A DNA stretch of 64,000 nucleotides from an uncultured Candidatus Saccharimonadales bacterium (lineage in GTDB: Bacteria > Patescibacteriota > Saccharimonadia > UBA4664). Location of the stretch: the NCBI GenBank assembly GCA_964467655.1, contig CAYXSN010000003.1, forward strand, positions 34,714 through 98,713, in the 5' to 3' direction. The notes below the pieces were generated by a model, which did no database searches, was not told the origin of the DNA, and worked only from the letters and a program-made list of their open reading frames with translations. This document shows positions 6,880 through 36,238 of this stretch, piece after piece. The position numbers were made by a program, and so were the translations under genes. Positions within the stretch are counted from its first letter, which is position 1. Each line of letters begins with the position of its first letter.

Positions 6880-7497
6880 GTGCTCCCATCTGGTACCGTA
6901 GAAACAATGGCACAAGAGCAATCACACTCAAACTTACCAAAGATCGCAATATCTGGTATTGCCGGAAGTTTCTCAGAAGAAGCCGCCGCCAAATTTATGA
7001 GAGTTGAAAGCCTGCAGGCCGAAACCGTCTATGCCACAACTGCCCGCGACACCATGGAAATGGTCTCTACCGGCAAGGTCGAATACGGAGTGGTTCCGCT
7101 CGAAAACTCAAACGGCGGTATTGTTGTCGAAACCGTCTATGCCTCCGCCGACTTTCTCTACCATATCGAAGGCATCCTCGAAATCGACGTCCATCAGAAC
7201 CTGATCGTCAAGCGTGGCACCAAGCGCGAAGATGTCCAAAAAATTGTCTCCCACCACCAAGCTCTGGCCCAATGTAAGTTCTATCTGCGCCGCAACTGGC
7301 CCAAGATTGAGCACGTAGAGTATGCCGATACCGCTCTGGCTGCCAAAGATCTGGCAGCCGGCAAGTTGGAGCCCAACGTAGCCGTCATTGCCTCGGCCAC
7401 TGCCGCCAAGCTCTACAACTTAGATATTCTCGACCCCAGCATTCAAGACCTCAAGTTCAACTTCACCTCGTTCATGATCATCTCCAAACATGACTGA
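6880..7497 (+). CDS. pheA: Prephenate dehydratase (PDT catalytic domain only, no ACT domain)
   Basis: KIAISGIAGSFSEEAA...YGVVPLENSNGGIV matches the PDT signature (KIAYLGPxGTFS...GVVPIENS). The true start may be the ATG at 6910. Confidence 0.8.
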   Translation: MLPSGTVETMAQEQSHSNLPKIAISGIAGSFSEEAAAKFMRVESLQAETVYATTARDTMEMVSTGKVEYGVVPLENSNGGIVVETVYASADFLYHIEGILEIDVHQNLIVKRGTKREDVQKIVSHHQALAQCKFYLRRNWPKIEHVEYADTALAAKDLAAGKLEPNVAVIASATAAKLYNLDILDPSIQDLKFNFTSFMIISKHD

Positions 7498-18896: not shown

Positions 18897-19856
18897 TTAC
18901 AAGCTGTCAGCGTCGCCGATCAGCCGGGCCAGGCCCTTCCCGCTCGAGCCGCGCCCGCTTTCGCGCTTTACCACCCAAAAATGCAGGTGCTTTACGCTCT
19001 GACCGGCCAGCTTGCCTACATTCAGCGACAGATTATAATGCTCGCCCAGATCCGGCACCTGCGGCAGCAATTCACGCATCTCATGCCACCAGTTCACCGG
19101 CAGTTTGGCCGGATCTTCAACGTGCACCTTTGGCACAATCAGATAATTTCCATCGCTCGACGCCGCTGCAATCATAAATCCGCCGTCCGACTGAGCTAAA
19201 ATCTCGCCCTTCAGACGCCCATTCGACAAACAAAACGGACACTCAGCCACCGGTTGATCAATCTTCACCGCACCCTCCCGAATTATCTCAAGGCCATCAT
19301 CAAGTACCCGAATAATAGTCGAGGGCGCTCGGCCTGACAAATCGCCCCCATCAAGGTAAAAATCAACCTCATCTTCAAAATAGTTTTCCGCCTCAGCAAT
19401 CGTCACCGATCCCGGCCGCCCAGGTTGGTTCGCGCTCGATGTCACCAACGGACCCGTTTGCTCAAGCAACGCCCGCACCGCTGCATCGGCCACCACCCGG
19501 AAAGCCTGACGGCCGGTTTCTTGATGCAAATAGCTCAGGTTTTCGTCGAGCGGCGTCTCCACACTCAAAGACGCCGGCCATAAATGAGCCACCCGGCGTA
19601 AATGACCATCCGGCACCCCCAGCTCCACCAGTTGCTCCACGCTCGCCGCAATCACCGTGCCCGGTTTATGCTCACGATGCTTCAGTTCATACAATTTGGC
19701 CACCGCCCCGGGATCGGCCGCCCGCGCCACCAAACCGTAGACCGTATCGGTCGGCAACACACCCACACCGCCCTCAAGCAGAATCTGGATGGCCCGGTCA
19801 GATGTCGTACGCTTTATCATTTTGGGATCATACCACATTCCTATTGACAGAATCAA
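18897..19856 (-). CDS. tsaC: L-threonylcarbamoyladenylate synthase (TsaC/YrdC/Sua5 domain) fused to a C-terminal HIT-like domain
   Basis: YrdC motifs GVGVLPTDTVYGL and SSANQPG in the N-terminal ~200 aa. The C-terminal ~110 aa carries the HIT-like signature VKHLHFWVV. Confidence 0.75.
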   Translation of the reverse strand: MILSIGMWYDPKMIKRTTSDRAIQILLEGGVGVLPTDTVYGLVARAADPGAVAKLYELKHREHKPGTVIAASVEQLVELGVPDGHLRRVAHLWPASLSVETPLDENLSYLHQETGRQAFRVVADAAVRALLEQTGPLVTSSANQPGRPGSVTIAEAENYFEDEVDFYLDGGDLSGRAPSTIIRVLDDGLEIIREGAVKIDQPVAECPFCLSNGRLKGEILAQSDGGFMIAAASSDGNYLIVPKVHVEDPAKLPVNWWHEMRELLPQVPDLGEHYNLSLNVGKLAGQSVKHLHFWVVKRESGRGSSGKGLARLIGDADSL

Positions 19857-19891
19857 TCAAAGTACTTGTTGTAATGCATTCGCCAAAAAGA

Positions 19892-19931
19892 TTGACATAA
19901 TTAATAGTACACTATAAACTATAAACTATAA
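19892..19931 (+). promoter_or_regulatory. Putative promoter (TTGACA at 19892-19897) with three tandem 'ctataaa' heptamers abutting the start codon
   Basis: ttgaca-N15/17-tataaa, then ctataaa repeated three times ending at the ATG at 19932. No Shine-Dalgarno sequence is visible. Confidence 0.4.
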
Positions 19932-20933
19932 ATGAAGACTGATACTGCAGATCGAATAGTCGGATACATCGCCGCCAACCATCAAGCGCGGGCACATGAT
20001 ATCGGCAAAAACTTTGGCATTAGCCAAGTTGCTGTGCATCGGCAGCTAAAGAAACTGCTCAGCCAAAACAAGATCCAGCGAGTCGGCAAGCCACCGCTCG
20101 TGTTTTATGTGCTTTCGAATCAAACACCCGCATCAGCAGCACAAACGGCAGCCCTACCCGCCGACACAACAACATATATCAACAAGCATTATCTTTATAT
20201 TTCACCTCAAGGGGGACTACTTTGCGGCATGGACGGGTTCCAGGCCTGGGTAAGTGCCACCAAACAGGACGCGCATATCGAGGCCCTCGCAGAGGAATAC
20301 TACCAAACGCGCCAAGCCTGGGAGAAAAACCGGGCTCCGGAAGGCTGGATTGATGCGACCTCCAAGGTGAGTACGACGTTTCCTGACAATGTCCTCGCCA
20401 AGCTTCACTACGCCGACTTCTATAGCATACCGAAATTTGGCAAAACCAAGCTGGGTAACCTGGTACTCTATGCCAAACAATCGCAAAACCGGCAGCTCAT
20501 AGCTAGTGCCGTCGACCAGGTGAAGCCAATTATTCAGCGAATTATTTCCACCTATGGCATCGATACGGCCGCGTTTGTGCCGCCAAGTGTTCCGAGAAAA
20601 CTACAGTTCATGCAGGAGCTTGCCAACAAACTTGATCTAGGCCTACCCAAGGCCGAACTCGTCAAATCGTACCAGGGCGAGATAATTGTGCCGCAAAAGT
20701 CGCTCTCAGGGCTCCAGGAGCGTATCACCAACGCCCAAGAGACCATCTATCTCAAGTCTCCTCTATCGGCCAGTTGTAAAAAACTCTTGTTGATCGATGA
20801 CGCGGTCGGTTCCGGCGCCACTCTCAACGAGATCGCCAAAAAACTCCGCTTTGCCAACCCGAGCATCGAGCAAATTATCGGGTTCGCGATCGTGGGGAGC
20901 GTGAATGGGTTTGAGGTGATTCGGGAGATATAA
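19932..20933 (+). CDS. Winged-helix HTH domain fused to a type-I phosphoribosyltransferase (PRTase) domain
   Basis: N-terminal ARAHDIGKNFGISQVAVHRQLKKL (HTH). C-terminal PRPP-binding motif LLLIDDAVGSGATLNEI. Confidence 0.6.
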   Translation: MKTDTADRIVGYIAANHQARAHDIGKNFGISQVAVHRQLKKLLSQNKIQRVGKPPLVFYVLSNQTPASAAQTAALPADTTTYINKHYLYISPQGGLLCGMDGFQAWVSATKQDAHIEALAEEYYQTRQAWEKNRAPEGWIDATSKVSTTFPDNVLAKLHYADFYSIPKFGKTKLGNLVLYAKQSQNRQLIASAVDQVKPIIQRIISTYGIDTAAFVPPSVPRKLQFMQELANKLDLGLPKAELVKSYQGEIIVPQKSLSGLQERITNAQETIYLKSPLSASCKKLLLIDDAVGSGATLNEIAKKLRFANPSIEQIIGFAIVGSVNGFEVIREI

Positions 20934-20970
20934 GTCAGCTCTCGCTATCCAATGCGATGGTTCTGCAAGT

Positions 20971-21279
20971 TCAAGCGGCGTCGCTTTGTTGCATATAATC
21001 CGCGACAATAACAATGATTTTTTGAACAGATTCGTTACAATTCTTAAAATCAATGCGGTCAAGAACGTCAGCAGTATATTTACGCATGACTTCACTGATG
21101 AGGGCATGGACAAATGACTGGGTAGCAGATGTTACACCCTCAAAATCCAAACACACATCCTTTCCACGGCTAATGCCCGGAAGGATTATCTGCTCACGTA
21201 TGTCGCGCGCAACGTCCTTATCTTCCGCGAATGCACCGACCTTTGGATATAAGCAAACAGTAATTACGTTATCCATCAT
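20971..21279 (-). CDS. STAS-like (DUF4325-type) small protein
   Basis: 102 aa; CLDFEGVTSATQSFVHALISE resembles the STAS-like DUF4325 core. Overlaps the upstream GHKL gene by 4 bp. Lies in a low-GC stretch. Confidence 0.45.
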   Translation of the reverse strand: MMDNVITVCLYPKVGAFAEDKDVARDIREQIILPGISRGKDVCLDFEGVTSATQSFVHALISEVMRKYTADVLDRIDFKNCNESVQKIIVIVADYMQQSDAA

Positions 21280-22241
21280 GAAAACCTCGGTCGCTTAAAC
21301 CTTTGCCGCCGTCGCTCCGCAATCGCTGTAGCATATACGTCGCCAATTAAAGTCAGCAGCTTATTAAGTTCTGTTGTTTCATCCAACGATAGATCAATAC
21401 CAACGACAGTTCCTTGCCATAATGGTAGATCATCGCGCTCAGAATGCTTCTCTCGATCTGGATCGCCATATAGGATTGTGCGCTTTGAGTTTTTGTCAGG
21501 CTGCAAAAGTTTATAAAATCCTTTTCCGCTATAAATCACGAAAAAGTCTCGATTGATTTTCGCCATAGATCGCACAAAGAACAACCCCGCACCAGCATTC
21601 GTCTCCGTGCCACCTTCTCGCGAGGTTGTACCAGTGATGCCGGGTGTCAATGCCAGCTTGATTGCGTCTAAATCCGATCGCGCCGAGTGTGATTCACGAA
21701 TTGTTTTCCAGATGCCTACACCCGTATCGGCGACGCCTATCCGAATTTTGTTAGTCTTTTTGAAATATTGAGCCGAAACTATTGCTCCGTGTTCAGACCG
21801 AGAATGTTCGAAAACGTTTCTTACTAACTCACTGACTATGTATCTGAGCGAGTCAGCTTGAAGTGGAGGTAAGTGGAGCATTGGAACCATATCCGTCATA
21901 AAGCGCTGCAAATCTTGAGAATTCTGGATTTCAGCCAGAGGGATAAAGCGGCCCGCAGGTTCGTGCCGCTCAATATCCATAGGCGATTCAACTTGCATCA
22001 GCCTGAAAAGTCCCATTGTATCGAGATAGTGGCCTGACCTAGCTGTAATCTCGTCAAAATGAATGTTCTCCGGTTTAAACGTCAAACCGAGAGCTCCAAT
22101 CATCGATAACACTACTGGATGGACAGCCATCCATCTATCGTTAGTTGTGATCTCTAACTGAGACACATCAGTGGGATCAAAGCCTTTGAGAAATGCGTCC
22201 AAATTACCCAAAAAAGCACTATTGGGAATATGTATCTTCAT
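21276..22241 (-). CDS. GHKL-superfamily (histidine-kinase-like) ATPase-domain protein
   Basis: N-box ELVRNVFEH, G1 box GVADTGVGI and G2 box GAGLFFV. No HisKA or DHp domain. Confidence 0.6.
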   Translation of the reverse strand: MKIHIPNSAFLGNLDAFLKGFDPTDVSQLEITTNDRWMAVHPVVLSMIGALGLTFKPENIHFDEITARSGHYLDTMGLFRLMQVESPMDIERHEPAGRFIPLAEIQNSQDLQRFMTDMVPMLHLPPLQADSLRYIVSELVRNVFEHSRSEHGAIVSAQYFKKTNKIRIGVADTGVGIWKTIRESHSARSDLDAIKLALTPGITGTTSREGGTETNAGAGLFFVRSMAKINRDFFVIYSGKGFYKLLQPDKNSKRTILYGDPDREKHSERDDLPLWQGTVVGIDLSLDETTELNKLLTLIGDVYATAIAERRRQRFKRPRFS

Positions 22242-22250
22242 GCAGAGAAT

Positions 22251-22298
22251 ATACCGGGATTCCCGGTAAATGTCAAATATACCGGGAATCCCGGTAAA
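22251..22298. promoter_or_regulatory. Two tandem palindromic operator-like sites (ataccggga(a)tcccggtaaat) just upstream of the GHKL gene
   Basis: 22251-22270 and 22277-22298 each contain a perfect palindrome accggga|tcccggt. They begin 10 bp upstream of the start codon at 22241. Confidence 0.5.
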
Positions 22299-22614
22299 TA
22301 TTAGTGTTGCCGGAAAAGCCGGAACTAACTCAGCACCGATAAATCATTCCGCTTAACCTGGCATTAAACACCCCCGACCGCTAAAATAACCCTAGATATC
22401 GCTCCCAGGCAGTCTCGCCCATCCTGCCCGGCCGCCCTGGATTGCAATATTTGTACATTGATGCAGTACAAGGAACGACTGAGACTCGCAGCGAGTCGTA
22501 CTCGACGTACGATGAGCGAGAATCCCAGGAAGTGACATAGTAATGCACGATGTACAAATATCGCACAGCGAATCTCTCACCACATAACGCCAACGTTTAG
22601 AGAGGAACCTACAC

Positions 22615-25431
22615 ATGAGCCACCAGCTCGACAAAGCTTACGATCCCCAAAAATACGAATCCAAAATTTACACCCGCTGGGAAGCCTCCGGCGCCTTCAA
22701 ACCAGAGGGCAACGCTCATTTGCGGATGCCATTAGAGGAAAGGTCTGCCGAACAAGCTGGCGCAGGTTCAAAAGCGGCAACCAATTCGCAGTTGGGTGGC
22801 GTTCGTGAGCGTGAGGAGGTAATTGGCGCAGCAGCATCGCTGACACGCAGCAATACGCAAAAAGACCCGTTCACCATCATCATGCCGCCCCCAAATGCCA
22901 ACGGTAACCTCCACATGGGCCACGCCATGTTCGTGATTGAAGACCTCATGATCCGCTACCGCCGCATGCAAGGCCACCCCACCCTCTGGCTTCCCGGCGC
23001 CGACCACGCCGGCATCGAAACCCAGGTGGTGTACGAGCGCCAACTCGAGAAAGAAGGCAAGTCCCGCTTCGACCTCGGCCGCAACGAGTTTTACAAACAA
23101 GTCGACTCCTTCACCAAAGACAACATGGGCAACATGATCGCCCAGGTCAAATCGCTCGGATTCTCGGTAGATTGGTCCCGTCTCACCTACACCCTCGACG
23201 ACAAGATCGTCAGCACCGTTTACGACACCTTCAAAGAACTCCACAACGCCGGCTACATCTACCGCGGCAACCGCATCGTCAACTGGTGCCCGTTCTGTCG
23301 CAGTGCTTTTGCTGACATTGAGGTGAAATACCGCGAGCAAACCGATCCGCTCTACTACATCAAGTACGGCCCGTTTGTGCTCGCCACCGTCCGCCCCGAA
23401 ACCAAGTTTGGCGACACCGCCATTGCCGTCAATCCGCGTGACGAGCGCTACCAGCACCTCATTGGCACCACCATCGAGGCCGAAGACCTCAACGGCCCCA
23501 TCAAACTCACCGTCATCGGCGATGACCACATCGACCCGGCCTTTGGCACCGGCGCCATGAAAGTCACCCCCGCCCACGACCCCAACGACTGGGAAATCGG
23601 CCTACGTCACAACCTGCGCGTCGTGCAAACCATCGGCACCGACGGGCTCCTCACCGCCGTGGCCGGTAAATACGCCGGCATGCCGGTCGCCGAGGCCCGC
23701 CAGCAAGTGGCCCACGATCTCGAAGAGCGCGGCCTCATCGATCACATCGAGTACGATTACAAGCACTCCATCGGCTACCACGACCGCTGCGGCACCCTCA
23801 TTGAGCCCCTCACCGTCGAACAGTGGTGGCTCAAAGTCGACGAACTCAAAAAACCCGTCATCGAAGCTATCAAATCCGGCGAGGTCAAATTCGTCCCTGA
23901 GCGTTTCACCAAGATCGCTCTCGATTGGATGGACAACCTGCGCGACTGGAACATCTCCCGCCAAAACTGGTGGGGCATCAGGGTGCCGGTGTATTACAAC
24001 CGCTCCATCGATCAATCATTGCCCGAGTACATCATTGGCACCGAAGCTAATGCCAAAGCCCTTTATGGTCCAAACGGTTACGAAGCCGAAACTGACAACT
24101 TCGACACCTGGTTTAGCTCCGGCCAGTGGCCCTACACCACGCTTCAAGCCACCGGCGACTTCTGGGCGAAACAGCCAGAAACCGCTCAGGGGAATGCAGT
24201 GCCAGGAAGTGGCGAGGAGCAGACCGAGGCGTACAGCGACGTACGCCAAGGGAGCACCGCAGGCACTGACGCCGCAATGCGTCCCCTGAGCGGTTTCTAC
24301 CCCACATCAGTCATGGAAACCGGCCGCGACATCCTGTTCCTGTGGGTCACCCGCATGATGATGTTTGGCCTCTTCAAAACCGGTAAGGTGCCGTTCAAAA
24401 CTGTCTACCTCCACGGCCTCGTTACCGACGACAAAGGCAAGAAGATGAGCAAATCCAAGGGCAACGTGATCAACCCGCTCGACATGACCGCCAAATACGG
24501 CACCGACGCCTTGCGCCTGGCCCTCACCATCGGCATCACCGCCGGCAATGACGGCCCACTCTCTGAGCGCAAGATCGAGGGCTACCGCAACTTCTGCAAC
24601 AAACTCTGGAACGTTGCGCGCTTCATCCTCGGCCAGCTCCCCGACGACTACTCCCCCGCTAGCCCTCAGCTCCACTCCCCCGCCGATCATTGGATGGCCG
24701 CCCGCACCGACGCCGCCATCGCCAGTGTCACCCAAGCCATCGAAGAATACCGCTTCTCTGAAGCCGGCCAAACTATCTACTCGTTACTCTGGGACGATTT
24801 CGCCGATTGGTATCTCGAAGCCTCCAAGGTATCACCCAACCACGACCTGCTCGTCCAGACCCTTGAGACCATCCTTAAGCTCGCCCACCCCATCGCCCCA
24901 TTTGTCACCGAAGCCGTTTGGTCAGAAATGGCTTGGAACAGCCACGATCAGCTCATTATCACAGCCTGGCCAGTTGTAGACACTACAAGAACACAAAGCG
25001 AACAGTCGCTCATATTTGAGCATATCCGCGATGTCATACAAAAAGCCCGCACCATCATCGCCGAGGAACAATTGTCCAAACCCACGCTCATCACCACCGA
25101 CAAAACCCTGGCCGGCTCCACCGAACTTCTGCAGCGTCTCGGCCGCCTCGGTCAAGTTGAATGCCACGAGCAGGGGAGCGGCCTCTACCTCGGCGCCGCG
25201 GTTCCCGCTTGGATCAAAGCCGACACCACGCTAATCAGCACCCGTCAGCACCGGCTCGCATCCCAGCTCAAGGAAAAACAAGCTTACGCCAAAGGTTTAG
25301 AAACAAAATTAGACAACCCCGGCTACGTGGCCAACGCCCCGGCAGCCGTCGTCACCGAAACTCGCGAACGCTTAGTGGATGCCCAAACCCAGATGAAACG
25401 GTTATCCGAGCAGCTAGCTGCCTTGACATAA
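22615..25431 (+). CDS. valS: Valine--tRNA ligase
   Basis: HIGH-region PPPNANGNLHMGHA, KMSKSKGN motif and a C-terminal coiled-coil tail. 938 aa. Carries two low-complexity insertions relative to typical ValRS. Confidence 0.95.
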   Translation: MSHQLDKAYDPQKYESKIYTRWEASGAFKPEGNAHLRMPLEERSAEQAGAGSKAATNSQLGGVREREEVIGAAASLTRSNTQKDPFTIIMPPPNANGNLHMGHAMFVIEDLMIRYRRMQGHPTLWLPGADHAGIETQVVYERQLEKEGKSRFDLGRNEFYKQVDSFTKDNMGNMIAQVKSLGFSVDWSRLTYTLDDKIVSTVYDTFKELHNAGYIYRGNRIVNWCPFCRSAFADIEVKYREQTDPLYYIKYGPFVLATVRPETKFGDTAIAVNPRDERYQHLIGTTIEAEDLNGPIKLTVIGDDHIDPAFGTGAMKVTPAHDPNDWEIGLRHNLRVVQTIGTDGLLTAVAGKYAGMPVAEARQQVAHDLEERGLIDHIEYDYKHSIGYHDRCGTLIEPLTVEQWWLKVDELKKPVIEAIKSGEVKFVPERFTKIALDWMDNLRDWNISRQNWWGIRVPVYYNRSIDQSLPEYIIGTEANAKALYGPNGYEAETDNFDTWFSSGQWPYTTLQATGDFWAKQPETAQGNAVPGSGEEQTEAYSDVRQGSTAGTDAAMRPLSGFYPTSVMETGRDILFLWVTRMMMFGLFKTGKVPFKTVYLHGLVTDDKGKKMSKSKGNVINPLDMTAKYGTDALRLALTIGITAGNDGPLSERKIEGYRNFCNKLWNVARFILGQLPDDYSPASPQLHSPADHWMAARTDAAIASVTQAIEEYRFSEAGQTIYSLLWDDFADWYLEASKVSPNHDLLVQTLETILKLAHPIAPFVTEAVWSEMAWNSHDQLIITAWPVVDTTRTQSEQSLIFEHIRDVIQKARTIIAEEQLSKPTLITTDKTLAGSTELLQRLGRLGQVECHEQGSGLYLGAAVPAWIKADTTLISTRQHRLASQLKEKQAYAKGLETKLDNPGYVANAPAAVVTETRERLVDAQTQMKRLSEQLAALT

Positions 25432-25457: not shown

Positions 25458-25994
25458 ATGAGCATGACTCCTGAACAAGCCGAGCAAATAACTCAGCCAA
25501 ATCCTAGGCACGCTGGGGTAGCAGCAGAGCTTACTGAAATCATTGCCAACCGCGAAAAAGTGCAAGCTCTGCCGGGGGAGTCGCAGGCGGCGTATTTGTT
25601 GCGCATCACGGCACCCAAACGGCCAATGAAAGGCACGGTCAATCTTGCGCGCACCAGCATAACAAATCTCACCGAACACCCCGACCTGATTGCGGCTAAT
25701 TATACAACTCTTGTTAAACCATCAGCTGCCGACATCGAAAAAAATAATCGGGATGCCATTGCCAATCTCGCCGCCAACGATCTTACTAGTAAAAACGGTG
25801 CTGTTGGTGCTGAGGGTGGTAACCTGGAAACTTTTCAAAAAACCGAACGGGGCCGGAGTTTTATTGATACACAAAGCGAAAAAAGCCAAGGTTATTACAA
25901 CTTATTATTTGCCGGAACCGGCGACCCAGAAATCCAGGCAGTCGTTCGGGACCAATTAGTAAATAAAAAGATCGTCAACTTCGGGGGGGGGTGA
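25458..25994 (+). CDS. Hypothetical protein (178 aa) ending at a G9 homopolymer
   Basis: Frame terminates at TGA immediately after GGGGGGGGG (25983-25991). Removing one G joins it to the next ORF. Confidence 0.4.
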   Translation: MSMTPEQAEQITQPNPRHAGVAAELTEIIANREKVQALPGESQAAYLLRITAPKRPMKGTVNLARTSITNLTEHPDLIAANYTTLVKPSAADIEKNNRDAIANLAANDLTSKNGAVGAEGGNLETFQKTERGRSFIDTQSEKSQGYYNLLFAGTGDPEIQAVVRDQLVNKKIVNFGGG

Positions 25995-26016
25995 TGCAAC
26001 GCTAGAACACGATTTA

Positions 26017-26460
26017 GTGGAGTTTGGTGCCCAACCGGCCAGCGTAATAAATGTTGATCCCTTTCCATCTCCCGACCAACCAGACGCCCCGAAACCGCGC
26101 GACCGTATCATCCAAGCTGACAGCGCCGATCCAAACTTGTTGCAGCATAGTGAACTTGCTCCAGGTTCTGCCGATGAAGTGTTGGCGCTGTATTCGGTGC
26201 CATTTTATCTTACCAGCGGCGAACAGATATCGCAGATGTTGCATAACGGCGTGGATTTGTTAGCTCCTGGCGGAAACTTTCGCCTCTGGCCAGTTAACTT
26301 TAATGCCAATGGCGCCACGCCTGAAGCACTCCAAGAGCGCAAACAGTATTTACTTCATACGCTCAAAGTATTATCAGCCCAAGGTCTGCAAATATCCATT
26401 GTTTTCAATGGTAATCGCGGTGACACCTTAATTATCCATAAACCAAAGACCACCGGATAG
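26017..26460 (+). CDS. Hypothetical protein (147 aa); possible 3' half of a frameshifted gene
   Basis: GTG start. Its frame is open back to 25966, overlapping the end of the previous ORF. Confidence 0.4.
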   Translation: MEFGAQPASVINVDPFPSPDQPDAPKPRDRIIQADSADPNLLQHSELAPGSADEVLALYSVPFYLTSGEQISQMLHNGVDLLAPGGNFRLWPVNFNANGATPEALQERKQYLLHTLKVLSAQGLQISIVFNGNRGDTLIIHKPKTTG

Positions 26461-34323: not shown

Positions 34324-34415
<92 letters not shown>

Positions 34416-34608
34416 TTAAATGCCCACCCAGATTAGCACACAAATCGCCTGCAGCTCAAGCGCCAACCCTCTAAAGTTACACAACCAAATCACTTGTAAG
34501 CGATAGAGAAAACGGAATTTATGCCAAACACTATCCATTTCGTAAAAATGCCAACTTGATCATTCCACAAACAAAAACCGGCCATTGAGCCGGATTGTTG
34601 ATAATTCC

Positions 34609-34685
34609 TGGTGCGCCTGGCAGGACTCGAACCTGCGACCCTCAGCACCGCAAGCTGATGCTCTAATCCACTGAGCTACAGGCGC
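34609..34685 (-). tRNA. tRNA-Arg (anticodon reads GCG), 77 nt with an encoded CCA
   Basis: Reverse complement GCGCCTG-TA-GCTC-AGTGGATTA-GAGC-A-TCAGC-TTGCGGT-GCTGA-GGGTC-GCAGG-TTCGAGT-CCTGC-CAGGCGC-A-CCA. The acceptor stem pairs perfectly. Confidence 0.8.
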
Positions 34686-35410: not shown

Positions 35411-35500
35411 GGAGGGGTCGCATAGTGGCCGAGTGCACCTGTCTTGAAAACAGGAGAGCCCGCAAGGGTTCCGTGGGTTCGAATCCCACCCCCTCCGCCA
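35411..35500 (+). tRNA. tRNA-Ser (anticodon TGA), 90 nt with an encoded CCA
   Basis: GGAGGGGTCGCATAGTGGCCGAGTGCACCTGT-CTTGAAA-ACAGG...GGTTCGAATCCCACCCCCTCCGCCA. Confidence 0.85.
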
Positions 35501-35515
35501 AGATATATTATCTAT

Positions 35516-36238
35516 ATGAATGATTTGAGATTAACACAAATATCCGCAGTCCTATTTGACCTGTATGGAACCCTGGTTGACATCAAGGTAGATGAGTTAT
35601 CGCTCAATTTTTGGACCTCAATAAGGAATACACTTGATGTCGCAATTGCTCCCGAAGATTTGCGCGACCAATATGAAAAAAAATGCACAGTAGCCATTGC
35701 AGCCAGCCAATCCGGCCAAGTAATTGAAGAGGTATTTGCTGATTGGTCTGCTGAACTCAGTCAGACATATCGCAAACCAATTGATACATTGACATTTATA
35801 CGCAAATTCCGCCAAGCCTCCCGAACCTCACTCCAATTACGAACGTATGCCAAACCCCTAATCCATATACTCCAGGCGTCAGGTACCAAAACGGCAATTG
35901 TATCGAATACAGAAGCAGCTTTCACTAAAGTCGATTTACTTGACATAAACATGCCTCCAGTCGATGCAATGGTCCTTTCGTCTGATGTTGGTTGCCGCAA
36001 GCCTCATCTCAAAATATTTTCGGCCGCACTCAACCAGCTCAACCTATCGCCAGATAAATGCGTATTTATTGGCGACAATTGGGAGGAGGATATTATGGGT
36101 GCCAGGCATGCAGGTACACATGCTATTTTTCTCTCAGACACCCCGAAGGTAATGAGCGATGTCATAACAATCTCTGCAAAGCCAAGTCTTAAATCCATGA
36201 TGGCAGCGTTAACAACACTAGACAATAACCTAAGCTAG
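35516..36238 (+). CDS. HAD-superfamily hydrolase
   Basis: Motif I FDLYGTLVD and motif IV VFIGDNWEEDIMGA. Start trimmed to 35516 because the longer ORF (35444) runs through the tRNA. Confidence 0.7.
   Translation: MNDLRLTQISAVLFDLYGTLVDIKVDELSLNFWTSIRNTLDVAIAPEDLRDQYEKKCTVAIAASQSGQVIEEVFADWSAELSQTYRKPIDTLTFIRKFRQASRTSLQLRTYAKPLIHILQASGTKTAIVSNTEAAFTKVDLLDINMPPVDAMVLSSDVGCRKPHLKIFSAALNQLNLSPDKCVFIGDNWEEDIMGARHAGTHAIFLSDTPKVMSDVITISAKPSLKSMMAALTTLDNNLS

Follow-up and report, generated by a model that had tools for sequence, protein, structure and literature searches.

A horizontally spread two-gene cassette of a predicted GHKL kinase and a STAS-like partner, with its own palindromic operator in bacteria and archaea

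We found that a low-GC islet within the 64-kb stretch of DNA analysed here (the window) is a 1.35-kb, horizontally spread cassette of two genes, encoding a 321-aa GHKL protein (K), which is a predicted protein kinase, and a 102-aa DUF4325/STAS-like protein (S), its predicted substrate. The pair is related to the recently described CapK/CapS and VapK/VapS immune switches (Chambers et al., EMBO J 2026, PMC13373217), but it differs from both in that S has no wHTH, there is no VapC and no neighbouring gene is conserved. The cassette carries its own palindromic operator, which is kept almost unchanged in bacteria and archaea but is fitted to the promoter type of each domain, and covariation suggests that K itself reads this DNA. 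We are quite confident that the pair belongs to the CapK/VapK-type kinase-substrate superfamily and consider it likely that it regulates itself through operator binding by a cassette protein, whereas the proposal that K is the reader is held with only moderate confidence.

The two-gene cassette and its spread

The initial annotation described an AT-rich islet carrying an overlapping pair of GHKL-ATPase and STAS-like genes behind tandem palindromes, and all of these elements were confirmed. The coding features of the cassette are as follows.

21276..22241 (-), K, a 321-aa VapK/CapK-like GHKL Ser/Thr-kinase-type protein
21921..22241 (-), N-terminal alpha/beta domain of K (residues 1-107), homologous to the N-terminal domain of VapK that its authors call STAS
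22191..22226 (-), K residues 6-17 (PNSAFLGNLDAF), the candidate operator-specificity segment
21387..21920 (-), GHKL/Bergerat ATP-binding (kinase) domain of K, residues 108-285, with N-box E138/N142, G1 D172-G176, G2 G217-G219 and a disordered ATP lid at 205-217
21279..21380 (-), C-terminal extension of K (residues 288-321), a long helix plus a basic tail ending in ERRRQRFKRPRFS
21276..21279 (-), ATGA stop/start overlap of 4 bp (translational coupling of K and S)
20971..21279 (-), S, a 102-aa single-domain STAS-like protein (Pfam DUF4325)
21115..21123 (-), S residues T53-Q54-S55 at the N-terminus of helix 2, with S55 or T53 the candidate phospho-acceptor

Pfam places HATPase_c/HATPase_c_2 at residues 109-230 of K (E 4e-6) and finds no HisKA or other dimerisation domain. 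The N-box (E138, N142), G1 (D172xGxG176) and G2 (G217xG219) motifs are invariant in homologues, with N142, D172, G174, G176, G217 and G219 invariant across 46 diverse sequences. Since all NCBIfam histidine-kinase hits are far below their cut-offs and no response regulator is nearby, K does not fit a two-component sensor kinase. The AF2 model of K has a pLDDT of 84.5, its nearest PDB folds being the SpoIIAB and UsfX anti-sigma kinases and Topo VI-B, and it shows a helix at 288-315 in the C-terminal extension. The [KR]-rich RF[TI]-COOH motif of this extension is conserved down to about 30% identity and is unexplained. S matches DUF4325 (E 3.5e-13), and T53, Q54 and S55 are invariant in 27 homologues, while the Alicyclobacillus homologue has SS at this position.

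The two genes are always adjacent. S lies directly downstream of K in 81 of the 81 loci where the contig continues, 69 of these have the same 4-bp overlap, and natural K-S fusion proteins of 409-451 aa exist.

The suggestion in the initial annotation that the islet was acquired horizontally is supported. GC drops to 0.43-0.48 against 0.57-0.62 in the flanks and a window mean of 0.54. K has a GC of 0.453 and a GC3 of 0.435 (z -2.5/-2.1 against 50 window ORFs), and S has 0.434 and 0.417 (GC3 z -2.4). The neighbouring PRTase gene is native-like (0.517/0.596), so the islet is the two-gene cassette only. Three related genomes keep the TsaD-Sua5...ValS flanks but lack the cassette. One relative at 83% identity has it at the same place, so the acquisition is not very recent. 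More than 2,700 homologues are about 60% identical to K over the full length, and at least 492 species-representative genomes carry a relative of K, most of them from Patescibacteria, DPANN and other archaea, Elusimicrobia and Omnitrophota. The 80 loci examined are 55-61% identical to K, and 28 of the 82 genome-derived loci analysed are archaeal.

No neighbouring gene is conserved. All-against-all clustering of 1,619 flanking ORFs found no family in more than 4 loci (the best recurrent family occurs in 4 of 82). The wHTH-PRTase neighbour (19932-20933) is present only in the closest relative and in none of the other 82 loci searched, which, together with its native GC3, led us to reject it as a third component or as the operator-binding regulator. 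The likeness to a defence-island module proposed initially is not supported by genomic context, as Pfam and PADLOC scans of the 109 nearest neighbours gave mostly housekeeping genes and only 3 of these ORFs hit PADLOC models. The link to defence rests instead on homology to CapKS/VapKSC and to a DrmA model. No relative was found among 2.9 million viral contigs of IMG/VR, and only distant hits (20-34% identity) appeared in the phage and plasmid collections. There is no conserved motif in the 3' flank and there are no terminal repeats of a mobile element. No Rfam family was found in 20800-22800, including the valS leader, and only four tRNAs were found in the whole window.

A promoter with paired palindromes

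The cassette is transcribed from a near-consensus sigma-70 promoter (TTGACA-17-TATATT) as a leaderless mRNA, and two copies of the 17-nt palindrome TACCGGGAWTCCCGGTA, inside a 28-nt direct repeat, bracket its -35 box.

22248..22253 (-), -10 hexamer TATATT, ending 6 nt before the ATG
22271..22276 (-), -35 hexamer TTGACA
22252..22268, proximal operator O1, TACCGGGATTCCCGGTA, which fills the -35/-10 spacer and whose last TA forms the first two bases of the -10
22280..22296, distal operator O2, TACCGGGAATCCCGGTA, immediately upstream of the -35 and 28 nt from O1
22308..22324, degenerate third copy, TTCCGGCTTTTCCGGCA, in 28-nt phase with O2

A better-preserved third copy (TTCCGGGATTTCCGGAA) sits at the same place in the 83%-identical relative. 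Chance predicts 0.03 matches to the palindrome in the window even with 3 mismatches allowed, and there are no other hits in the 64 kb.

The initial annotation read the palindromes as the sites of a dimeric repressor, and repression through palindromic operators is strongly supported by conservation. The operator is present in 78 of 83 loci, at about -53/-25 in bacteria and about -56 in archaea, where it flanks a TATA box in place of the -35/-10. TTGACN is found in 46 of 54 bacterial loci, and in bacterial homologues the -10 ends 5-8 nt before the start codon in 32 of 48 loci. In 802 kb we counted 119 copies at own promoters against 3 elsewhere. An independent metagenome set confirmed the pattern, including wide arrangements of the same half-sites.

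An alternative is that the palindromes are chance repeats, a terminator hairpin for valS-side transcription, or the ends or recombination sites of a mobile element. A consensus scan does flag O1 as a terminator-like hairpin, and the cassette is mobile by an unknown mechanism. However, the palindromes hold fixed positions relative to the -35/-10 or the TATA box in about 150 loci, they occur only at the 5' end, and they lie upstream of the transcription start, so they are not in the mRNA. Given this and the low chance expectation, we consider this alternative very unlikely.

Which protein may read the operator

The regulator is probably encoded in the cassette, and comparison of operator variants points to K rather than S. 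Positions 12, 13 and 16 of K are the only columns in either protein that separate the 5 loci with the shortened operator (TACCGGRNTTCCGGTA) from the 128 loci with the canonical one, and G12 and N13 are invariant in 128 of 128 canonical loci. The 5 loci are not a single clade but fall into two clusters, one of which is 81% identical to K proteins that have canonical operators. Loci with the same half-site in a wide spacing keep G12/N13, and other operator classes also change residues 10 and 12 (or 12/13). We therefore infer that K most likely reads the operator through residues of about 6-17, with G12/N13 as specificity residues and one half-site per protomer, and that K would then repress its own promoter. 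This should be held with some caution, because the covariation rests on 5 loci (about 3 independent sequences) and one operator variant, and no experiment or complex model shows that K binds double-stranded DNA. The basic C-terminal tail of K is disfavoured as the specificity-determining reader, as its motif is conserved across subfamilies that have different operators or none and does not covary with the operator.

It is also possible, though we think it unlikely, that S or only the K-S complex is the repressor and that K is purely the kinase that inactivates it, in which case the covariation in K would reflect contacts within a K-S-DNA complex, or chance. In CapKS, the one characterised relative with operators, it is the STAS protein that binds narrow and wide palindromes with identical half-sites, and phosphorylation releases it (PMC13373217). 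The clade described here also shows narrow and wide arrangements of one half-site, and type II toxin-antitoxin logic usually places DNA binding on the small partner or on the complex. Against this, S is a bare STAS-like domain of 96-102 aa with no wHTH and a net negative charge counted from its sequence, and no S column covaries with the operator variant.

Relation to described systems and possible role

One of the closest known systems is VapK-VapS-VapC (PMC13373217; VapS-VapC structure PDB 9Z7O), with which the cassette shares the gene order of K then S. Aligning a 46-sequence profile of K to VapK with hhalign gave a probability of 98.9% and an E-value of 2e-17, covering K 19-289 and VapK 35-293, and the GHKL part alone gave E 2e-9 at 31% identity. 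The two kinases are of similar size (321 against 302 aa) and neither has an N-terminal HTH. VapS is also DUF4325 (E 2.7e-17), S against VapS gave E 2.6e-5, and VapS S48 aligns to Q54, which T53 and S55 flank. Some caution is needed for the N-terminal domain of K, in which HP(41-42), YLxRMGLF and GRFIPL are conserved, since it gave no significant structural match to STAS domains when folded alone and its homology to VapK rests on one profile alignment. In that alignment the aromatic residue that stacks on ssDNA in CapK (W68) and VapK (F54) does not align exactly with the clade-invariant W37 but is offset by 2, and only P42 is conserved family-wide. There are also clear differences. We found no VapC/PIN gene and no conserved third gene. 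S ends a few residues after the STAS-like core and lacks the C-terminal helix (residues 94-116) that VapS, at 116 aa, uses to block VapC. VapK ends about 10 residues after the last GHKL strand and has no equivalent of the C-terminal extension of K. No operator at a leaderless promoter is described for vapKSC, and the cassette is found mainly in CPR bacteria, DPANN and other archaea, Elusimicrobia and Omnitrophota rather than in the bacterial groups surveyed in the paper.

CapK-CapS, the DNA-damage-activated kinase and STAS-wHTH repressor that controls CBASS, Bub, Thoeris and other immune operons, is likewise a SpoIIAB/SpoIIAA-type pair that, as is inferred for the cassette, autoregulates through palindromic sites overlapping the promoter, uses narrow and wide arrangements of one half-site and encodes no phosphatase. 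However, S is DUF4325 only, most of 120 homologues being 91-105 aa (range 91-117) with no further Pfam domain, and K has no N-terminal HTH. There is no regulated downstream operon, the downstream gene in the window being convergent and no gene family recurring downstream, and the operator sequence is unrelated (TACCGGGA against TTAA). In a sequence search of the PDB, which gave a weak hit to VapS, a profile of S did not detect CapS at E<=10.

The initial annotation compared the pair to partner-switching modules outside a sigma-factor operon, and this is supported and sharpened by the homology to VapK/VapS. As in SpoIIAB/SpoIIAA and RsbW/RsbV, the kinase has a GHKL fold (SpoIIAB gives a TM of 0.64 normalised to the target), the partner has a STAS fold with a phospho-acceptor (here only a candidate) at the start of helix 2, and the proposed logic is competition between two partners for the kinase. 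An ordinary anti-sigma / anti-anti-sigma pair is nevertheless very unlikely and, in our view, already effectively refuted, although JGI annotates K as 'anti-sigma regulatory factor (Ser/Thr protein kinase)' and NCBIfam spIIAB gives a weak hit (E 0.0045), its score of 16.9 being far below the cut-off of 135. No sigma factor or PP2C phosphatase was found in the window neighbourhood or in the 80+ loci, K has two extra regions compared with the about 140 aa of SpoIIAB, and the presence of the cassette in archaea, which have no sigma factors, excludes dependence on one.

Both proteins also hit consecutive stretches of one PADLOC DrmA model (PDLC02567), K at model positions 72-258 (E 5e-13) and S at 328-388 (E 1e-3), so some DrmA-type helicases appear to carry an N-terminal fused K-S module. 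Only 72-388 of the 1750 model positions are matched, and no helicase, DUF1998 partner or DISARM gene is nearby. This is a shared sensor module and not membership of DISARM.

By analogy with these relatives, we infer that K phosphorylates S on S55 or T53, although kinase activity as opposed to ATPase activity alone is itself inferred in this way. More tentatively, S binding, phosphorylation and/or a stress ligand, which could be single-stranded DNA as in CapK/VapK, may shift K between a DNA-bound and an S-bound state, in a form of partner switching where promoter DNA replaces the sigma factor. Such a design needs no host-specific factor, which would explain the spread across domains. A circuit that regulates only itself has no evident output, and the most likely roles are a stress- or DNA-damage-triggered growth or toxin switch, or an addiction-type module.

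A toxin-antitoxin, addiction or abortive-infection module is possible on the present evidence, and would be compatible with the scheme above since it concerns the output. Here K would be a toxic kinase or ATPase, or a DNA- or ssDNA-binding protein, S its labile pseudo-substrate antitoxin, and the operators would provide the usual autoregulation. The cassette is a tiny, solitary, horizontally mobile unit of two overlapping genes under an operator-controlled promoter, inserted among housekeeping genes and sometimes next to tRNA genes, with presence/absence polymorphism. In one locus it sits among MNT/AbiEii-type genes, and its relative VapKSC is a proven TA and anti-phage system. On the other hand, no toxin domain is recognisable, the toxin of VapKSC is a separate PIN protein that is absent here, no PADLOC system model matches the pair, and its absence from the viral contigs and the scarcity of defence genes around it do not favour this reading.

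A more speculative possibility is that K is a sequence-specific DNA-binding protein kinase whose N-terminal VapK-like domain has been re-tooled from sensing single-stranded DNA to reading a 9-bp half-site of its own operator. The cassette would then be a sigma-independent partner-switching circuit that spread between Bacteria and Archaea with only a swap of -35/-10 for a TATA box around an unchanged operator. It would be the minimal, ancestral-like form of the CapKS/VapKSC immune switches, and may act as a selfish stress-triggered growth switch in CPR and DPANN symbionts.

CapK/CapS and VapK/VapS were described only in 2026, as DNA-damage-activated switches that turn on bacterial immune operons or a PIN toxin, and the cassette found here adds a third, stand-alone architecture with no recognisable effector, in lineages where regulatory and defence biology is almost unexplored. 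A distant K-S pair lies on a plasmid of a cultivable organism, Alicyclobacillus acidocaldarius DSM 446. Protein, operator and inferred autoregulatory logic are all conserved across the two domains while only the core promoter has been exchanged, with leaderless mRNA in both, which makes this a clean natural experiment in how regulatory circuits are made portable between domains. If the kinase itself reads the operator, that would be a new mode of partner switching, and a compact host-independent ligand-responsive repressor module.

Structure of the cassette and the spread of its two proteins

The initial annotation had described a low-GC two-gene module, a GHKL ATPase followed by a small STAS-like protein, behind tandem palindromes, and the region contains exactly this. 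The elements are as follows.

21276-22241, minus strand: 321-aa ORF, called K here
20971-21279, minus strand: 102-aa ORF, called S here, which shares an ATGA stop/start overlap with K
22252-22268: proximal 17-nt palindrome, TACCGGGATTCCCGGTA
22280-22296: distal 17-nt palindrome, TACCGGGAATCCCGGTA
22308-22324: degenerate third copy of the palindrome

Pfam assigns HATPase_c/HATPase_c_2 to K residues 109-230 and finds no HisKA domain, while S matches DUF4325, a "STAS-like domain" (E 3.5e-13). The GC content falls to 0.43-0.48 from 0.57-0.62 in the flanks. When measured against 50 non-overlapping ORFs of the window, K has GC 0.453 and GC3 0.435 (z -2.5 and -2.1) and S has 0.434 and 0.417 (GC3 z -2.4). 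The adjacent wHTH-PRTase gene is native-like (0.517/0.596), and the compositional islet is therefore just the K-S cassette. Two small ORFs (178 and 147 aa) just downstream of valS (25458-26460, plus strand) have low GC3 (0.47-0.48, z about -1.6) and no Pfam or NCBIfam match, and metagenome copies of the same genome have ORFs of 176-181 and 147 aa at the same positions. The lowest-GC ORF in the window (35444-36238, plus strand; GC 0.443, GC3 0.411) overlaps a tRNA at 35411-35497 and lies near two other tRNAs (34329-34685), and may be a spurious ORF or a small foreign insert at a tRNA cluster.

The two full palindromes lie inside a 28-nt direct repeat. Even with three mismatches allowed, chance predicts 0.03 matches in the window, and there are no further copies in 64 kb. 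They are integrated into an 11-of-12 match to the sigma-70 consensus, TTGACA-17-TATATT. The proximal palindrome occupies the spacer and its last two bases form the start of the -10, while the distal palindrome abuts the -35 on its upstream side. The -10 ends 6 nt before the ATG and there is no Shine-Dalgarno sequence, so the transcript should be leaderless. The degenerate third copy sits in the same 28-nt phase and is better preserved in the closest relative. Further toward valS, the 370-nt region upstream of that gene (22300-22614) contains long inverted repeats, 22396-22423/22511-22538 and 22443-22458/22550-22565 (94% complementary), to which no Rfam family matches, T-box included, even at E<=1.

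K has more than 2,700 detectable homologues. The best 120 are full length (317-355 aa, mostly 317-324) and 58-83% identical to K, and their source names span Patescibacteria/CPR groups, Woesearchaeota, Nanoarchaeota, Diapherotrites, Elusimicrobia, Omnitrophota and Deltaproteobacteria. A scan of one genome per species found relatives in 492 genomes, and an all-against-all HMMER search of 1.84 billion cluster representatives found 2,437 at E<=1e-3, with 85 below 1e-30. Conservation is unusually high, with a mean column identity of 73% among 24 sequences from different phyla and both prokaryotic domains. It starts at residue 1 (MKIHLPNSAFLGN), which supports the annotated start. In all 81 loci where the contig continues a DUF4325 ORF follows directly, and in 69 of them it has the same 4-bp overlap. 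More distant relatives include 409-451-aa proteins in which K and S are fused, and K and S match consecutive stretches (72-258 and 328-388) of one PADLOC DrmA model (PDLC02567). The two proteins therefore form an obligate functional unit. The two domains apparently also occur as an N-terminal module on some DISARM DrmA-type helicases, which together with the fusions suggests that the K-S pair is a reusable sensor and switch module.

A conserved operator and its possible reader

In 78 of 83 loci the motif CCGGGAWTCCCGG (two or fewer mismatches) lies within 250 nt upstream of K. Anchored alignments show two stereotyped layouts. On bacterial contigs a palindrome is followed by TTGACA and then by a second palindrome, fused through ...CCGGTA to TAnnnT, with 5 to 8 nt to the start codon. 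On archaeal contigs a palindrome is followed by AAA, N8, TTTATAAAT, N8 and a right half-site, ATTCCCGGTA, with 2 to 4 nt to the ATG. The counts support this, since of 54 bacterial loci 48 have a -35/-10 pair and 6 have a TATA-like box, while all 28 archaeal loci have a TATA box, which ends 21-25 nt before the ATG in 25 of them, and only one has TTGACN. Across 802 kb of fetched loci the operator (one or fewer mismatches) occurs 119 times at K promoters and 3 times elsewhere. One of these three is a perfect extra copy of the operator core (CCGGGAATCCCGG) that lies 2.6 kb downstream of the K start on an archaeal contig (locus L015, position 6950). An independent set of 80 metagenome loci repeats the pattern. 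It adds "wide" versions, in which the same two half-sites are split by roughly 13-24 bp around the -35, as well as versions that keep only the distal palindrome plus the -10-proximal half-site. We infer that a cis element that stays constant while the core promoter is exchanged between domains cannot depend on a host factor, that its reader must be K, S or their complex, and that the circuit is autoregulatory.

Looking at which of the two proteins reads the DNA, S is a bare, acidic STAS-like domain. In an AF2 model (pLDDT 84.5, pTM 0.88) K has a predicted N-terminal alpha/beta domain (1-105), the GHKL domain and a C-terminal helix (288-315) with a basic tail. The tail motif ([KR]-rich, ending RF[TI]) is conserved even in 30%-identical subfamilies, including subfamilies whose promoters lack the canonical operator, and it is therefore unlikely to set specificity. 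Five loci (L027, L041, L052, L100 and L102) carry a shortened operator, TACCGGRNTTCCGGTA (the "short" operator TACCGGATTTCCGGTA), with one G:C pair fewer per half-site. Over all alignment columns of K and S, only K positions 12 (G to N), 13 (N to S) and 16 (P/A/S to T) separate these five loci from the 128 with the canonical operator, in all of which G12 and N13 are invariant. No S column does. The five loci are not one cluster, as L100/L102 group at 81% identity with K proteins that have canonical operators but are only 72-75% identical to the other three. Control clades of similar size have a median of one discriminating column, and these are scattered along the protein.

Other operator classes also change residues 10 and 12 (or 12/13), as in LSFGDYLRNF and LPNSA[RH]LQN, whereas loci with the same half-site in wide spacing keep G12/N13. 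One subclade (metagenome loci L160 and L164) has the N-terminal motif LSFGDYLRNF in place of LPNSAFLGNI. Its promoter carries different inverted repeats (AGCGTGT...ACACGCT and GAACGTGAA...TTCACGTTC) that flank -35-like boxes, and it may be a second operator specificity. This is the pattern expected if the segment PNSAFLGNxDxF of K contacts the half-site. The evidence, however, is correlative and rests on few independent lineages.

Relation to kinase-STAS switches

A structure search of K against the PDB gives only weak matches, to Topo VI-B and to the anti-sigma kinases SpoIIAB (TM 0.64 on the target) and UsfX. A weak sequence hit of the S profile to "Escherichia VapS" (PDB 9Z7O) led us to the systems described by Chambers et al., EMBO J 2026 (PMC13373217). 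In that work CapK is an HTH-STAS-GHKL kinase activated by single-stranded DNA, which phosphorylates Ser54 of CapS, a STAS-wHTH repressor. This breaks the CapS dimer and de-represses CBASS, Bub, Thoeris and other operons. In vapKSC, VapK (STAS-GHKL) is proposed to phosphorylate VapS (STAS plus a C-terminal helix), releasing the PIN toxin VapC. The evidence there is a phosphomimetic VapS S48E mutant, mutant phenotypes and an AF3 model; VapK was insoluble, so its kinase activity was not assayed.

Using the VapS and VapK sequences from the supplementary AF3 model of that paper, we found that VapS is itself a DUF4325 member (E 2.7e-17) and that the S profile aligns to VapS (E 2.6e-5), placing VapS Ser48 between the invariant T53 and S55 of S. 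A diverse 46-sequence K profile aligns to VapK with probability 98.9% and E 2e-17, across both the N-terminal and GHKL domains. K-S is therefore a member of the CapK/VapK-CapS/VapS superfamily, but it fails the defining features of both published systems. S has no wHTH and there is no regulated downstream operon, so it is not CapKS. There is no VapC and S lacks the inhibitory C-terminal helix, so it is not VapKSC. The paper does not mention archaea, CPR bacteria or stand-alone pairs. A classical RsbW/RsbV or SpoIIAB/SpoIIAA role is excluded. No sigma factor is present and the cassette occurs in archaea.

A distant two-gene K-S pair (26% identity) lies on plasmid pAACI02 of a cultivable organism, Alicyclobacillus acidocaldarius DSM 446 (locus L093, 540-1748), next to IS66 and IS1634 elements. 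Its K lacks the basic tail, a sigma-factor-like HTH gene lies just upstream, and a different palindrome of 12 bp (AACCGATCGGTT) overlaps a TTGACA box.

Genomic context and a possible mechanism

An 83%-identical K is found in a relative at the same place, next to valS and the same 333-aa PRTase gene. In the window this gene (19932-20933, plus strand) is convergent with S and has native GC3, and it lies next to K-S only in the closest relative. Its product has an N-terminal wHTH (MarR/HTH_10-like) and a C-terminal PRTase domain, and aligns over its whole length to the C-terminal half (365-681 of 689) of the PADLOC PsyrT toxin model (E 2e-14), and weakly to retron PRTase and ShosT models. Three other relatives (TsaD 76-79% identical) keep the FemAB...TsaD-Sua5-[x]-ValS order but lack K-S. 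Each carries different genes in the Sua5-valS interval, namely DnaJ with an HTH_31 protein; RidA, threonine dehydratase and ROK; or a single 149-aa ORF. This interval (18897-22614 in the window) is therefore a variable slot in this probably Saccharibacteria-like lineage, and K-S is one alternative cargo. The Sua5/YrdC (t6A synthesis) gene at its border (18897-19856, minus strand) is fused to a C-terminal HIT domain, giving a 319-aa protein, while in relatives Sua5 is 186-188 aa and has no HIT part.

Across 80 genomes no neighbouring gene family recurs in more than 4 loci. The 109 nearest flanking ORFs are mostly housekeeping genes (RuvA, RNase HII, SmpB, HisRS, purine and queuosine enzymes). 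Only three are RhuM/Fic proteins and two are integrases, and only those three hit PADLOC candidate models. In three unrelated hosts tRNA genes (Glu, Tyr and Lys; 7266-7340 in locus L016, 4788-4872 in L035 and 7329-7403 in L057) lie 17-76 nt downstream of the S stop codon, which hints at insertion next to tRNA genes. There is no conserved 3' boundary motif, and no copy in 2.9 million viral contigs. The cassette thus behaves like a solitary, TA-like selfish unit rather than a component of defence islands. The interpretation in the initial annotation, that of a horizontally acquired, operator-controlled module reminiscent of partner switching, is essentially right apart from the defence-island context it had also suggested.

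Taken together, an intact ATP-binding kinase-type protein and its STAS-like partner are co-transcribed from an operator-occupied promoter whose transcript should be leaderless, and the operator is cassette-specific and conserved across domains. We infer that K protomers each read one half-site through the N-terminal segment, bridge half-sites in narrow or wide spacing, and occlude the -35/-10 region, or the TATA/initiator region in archaea. We further infer that K phosphorylates S at S55 or T53 and, by analogy with SpoIIAB, CapK and VapK, that binding of S, nucleotide state and possibly single-stranded DNA could shift K off the promoter. The output could be toxicity of free K, a host target of S or phospho-S, or simple addiction. 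The kinase-STAS switch family to which the element belongs was first described in 2026. What is new here is a form with no recognisable effector that is distributed across domains, and its cis-regulatory design and the covariation of K with the operator are the unexpected parts.
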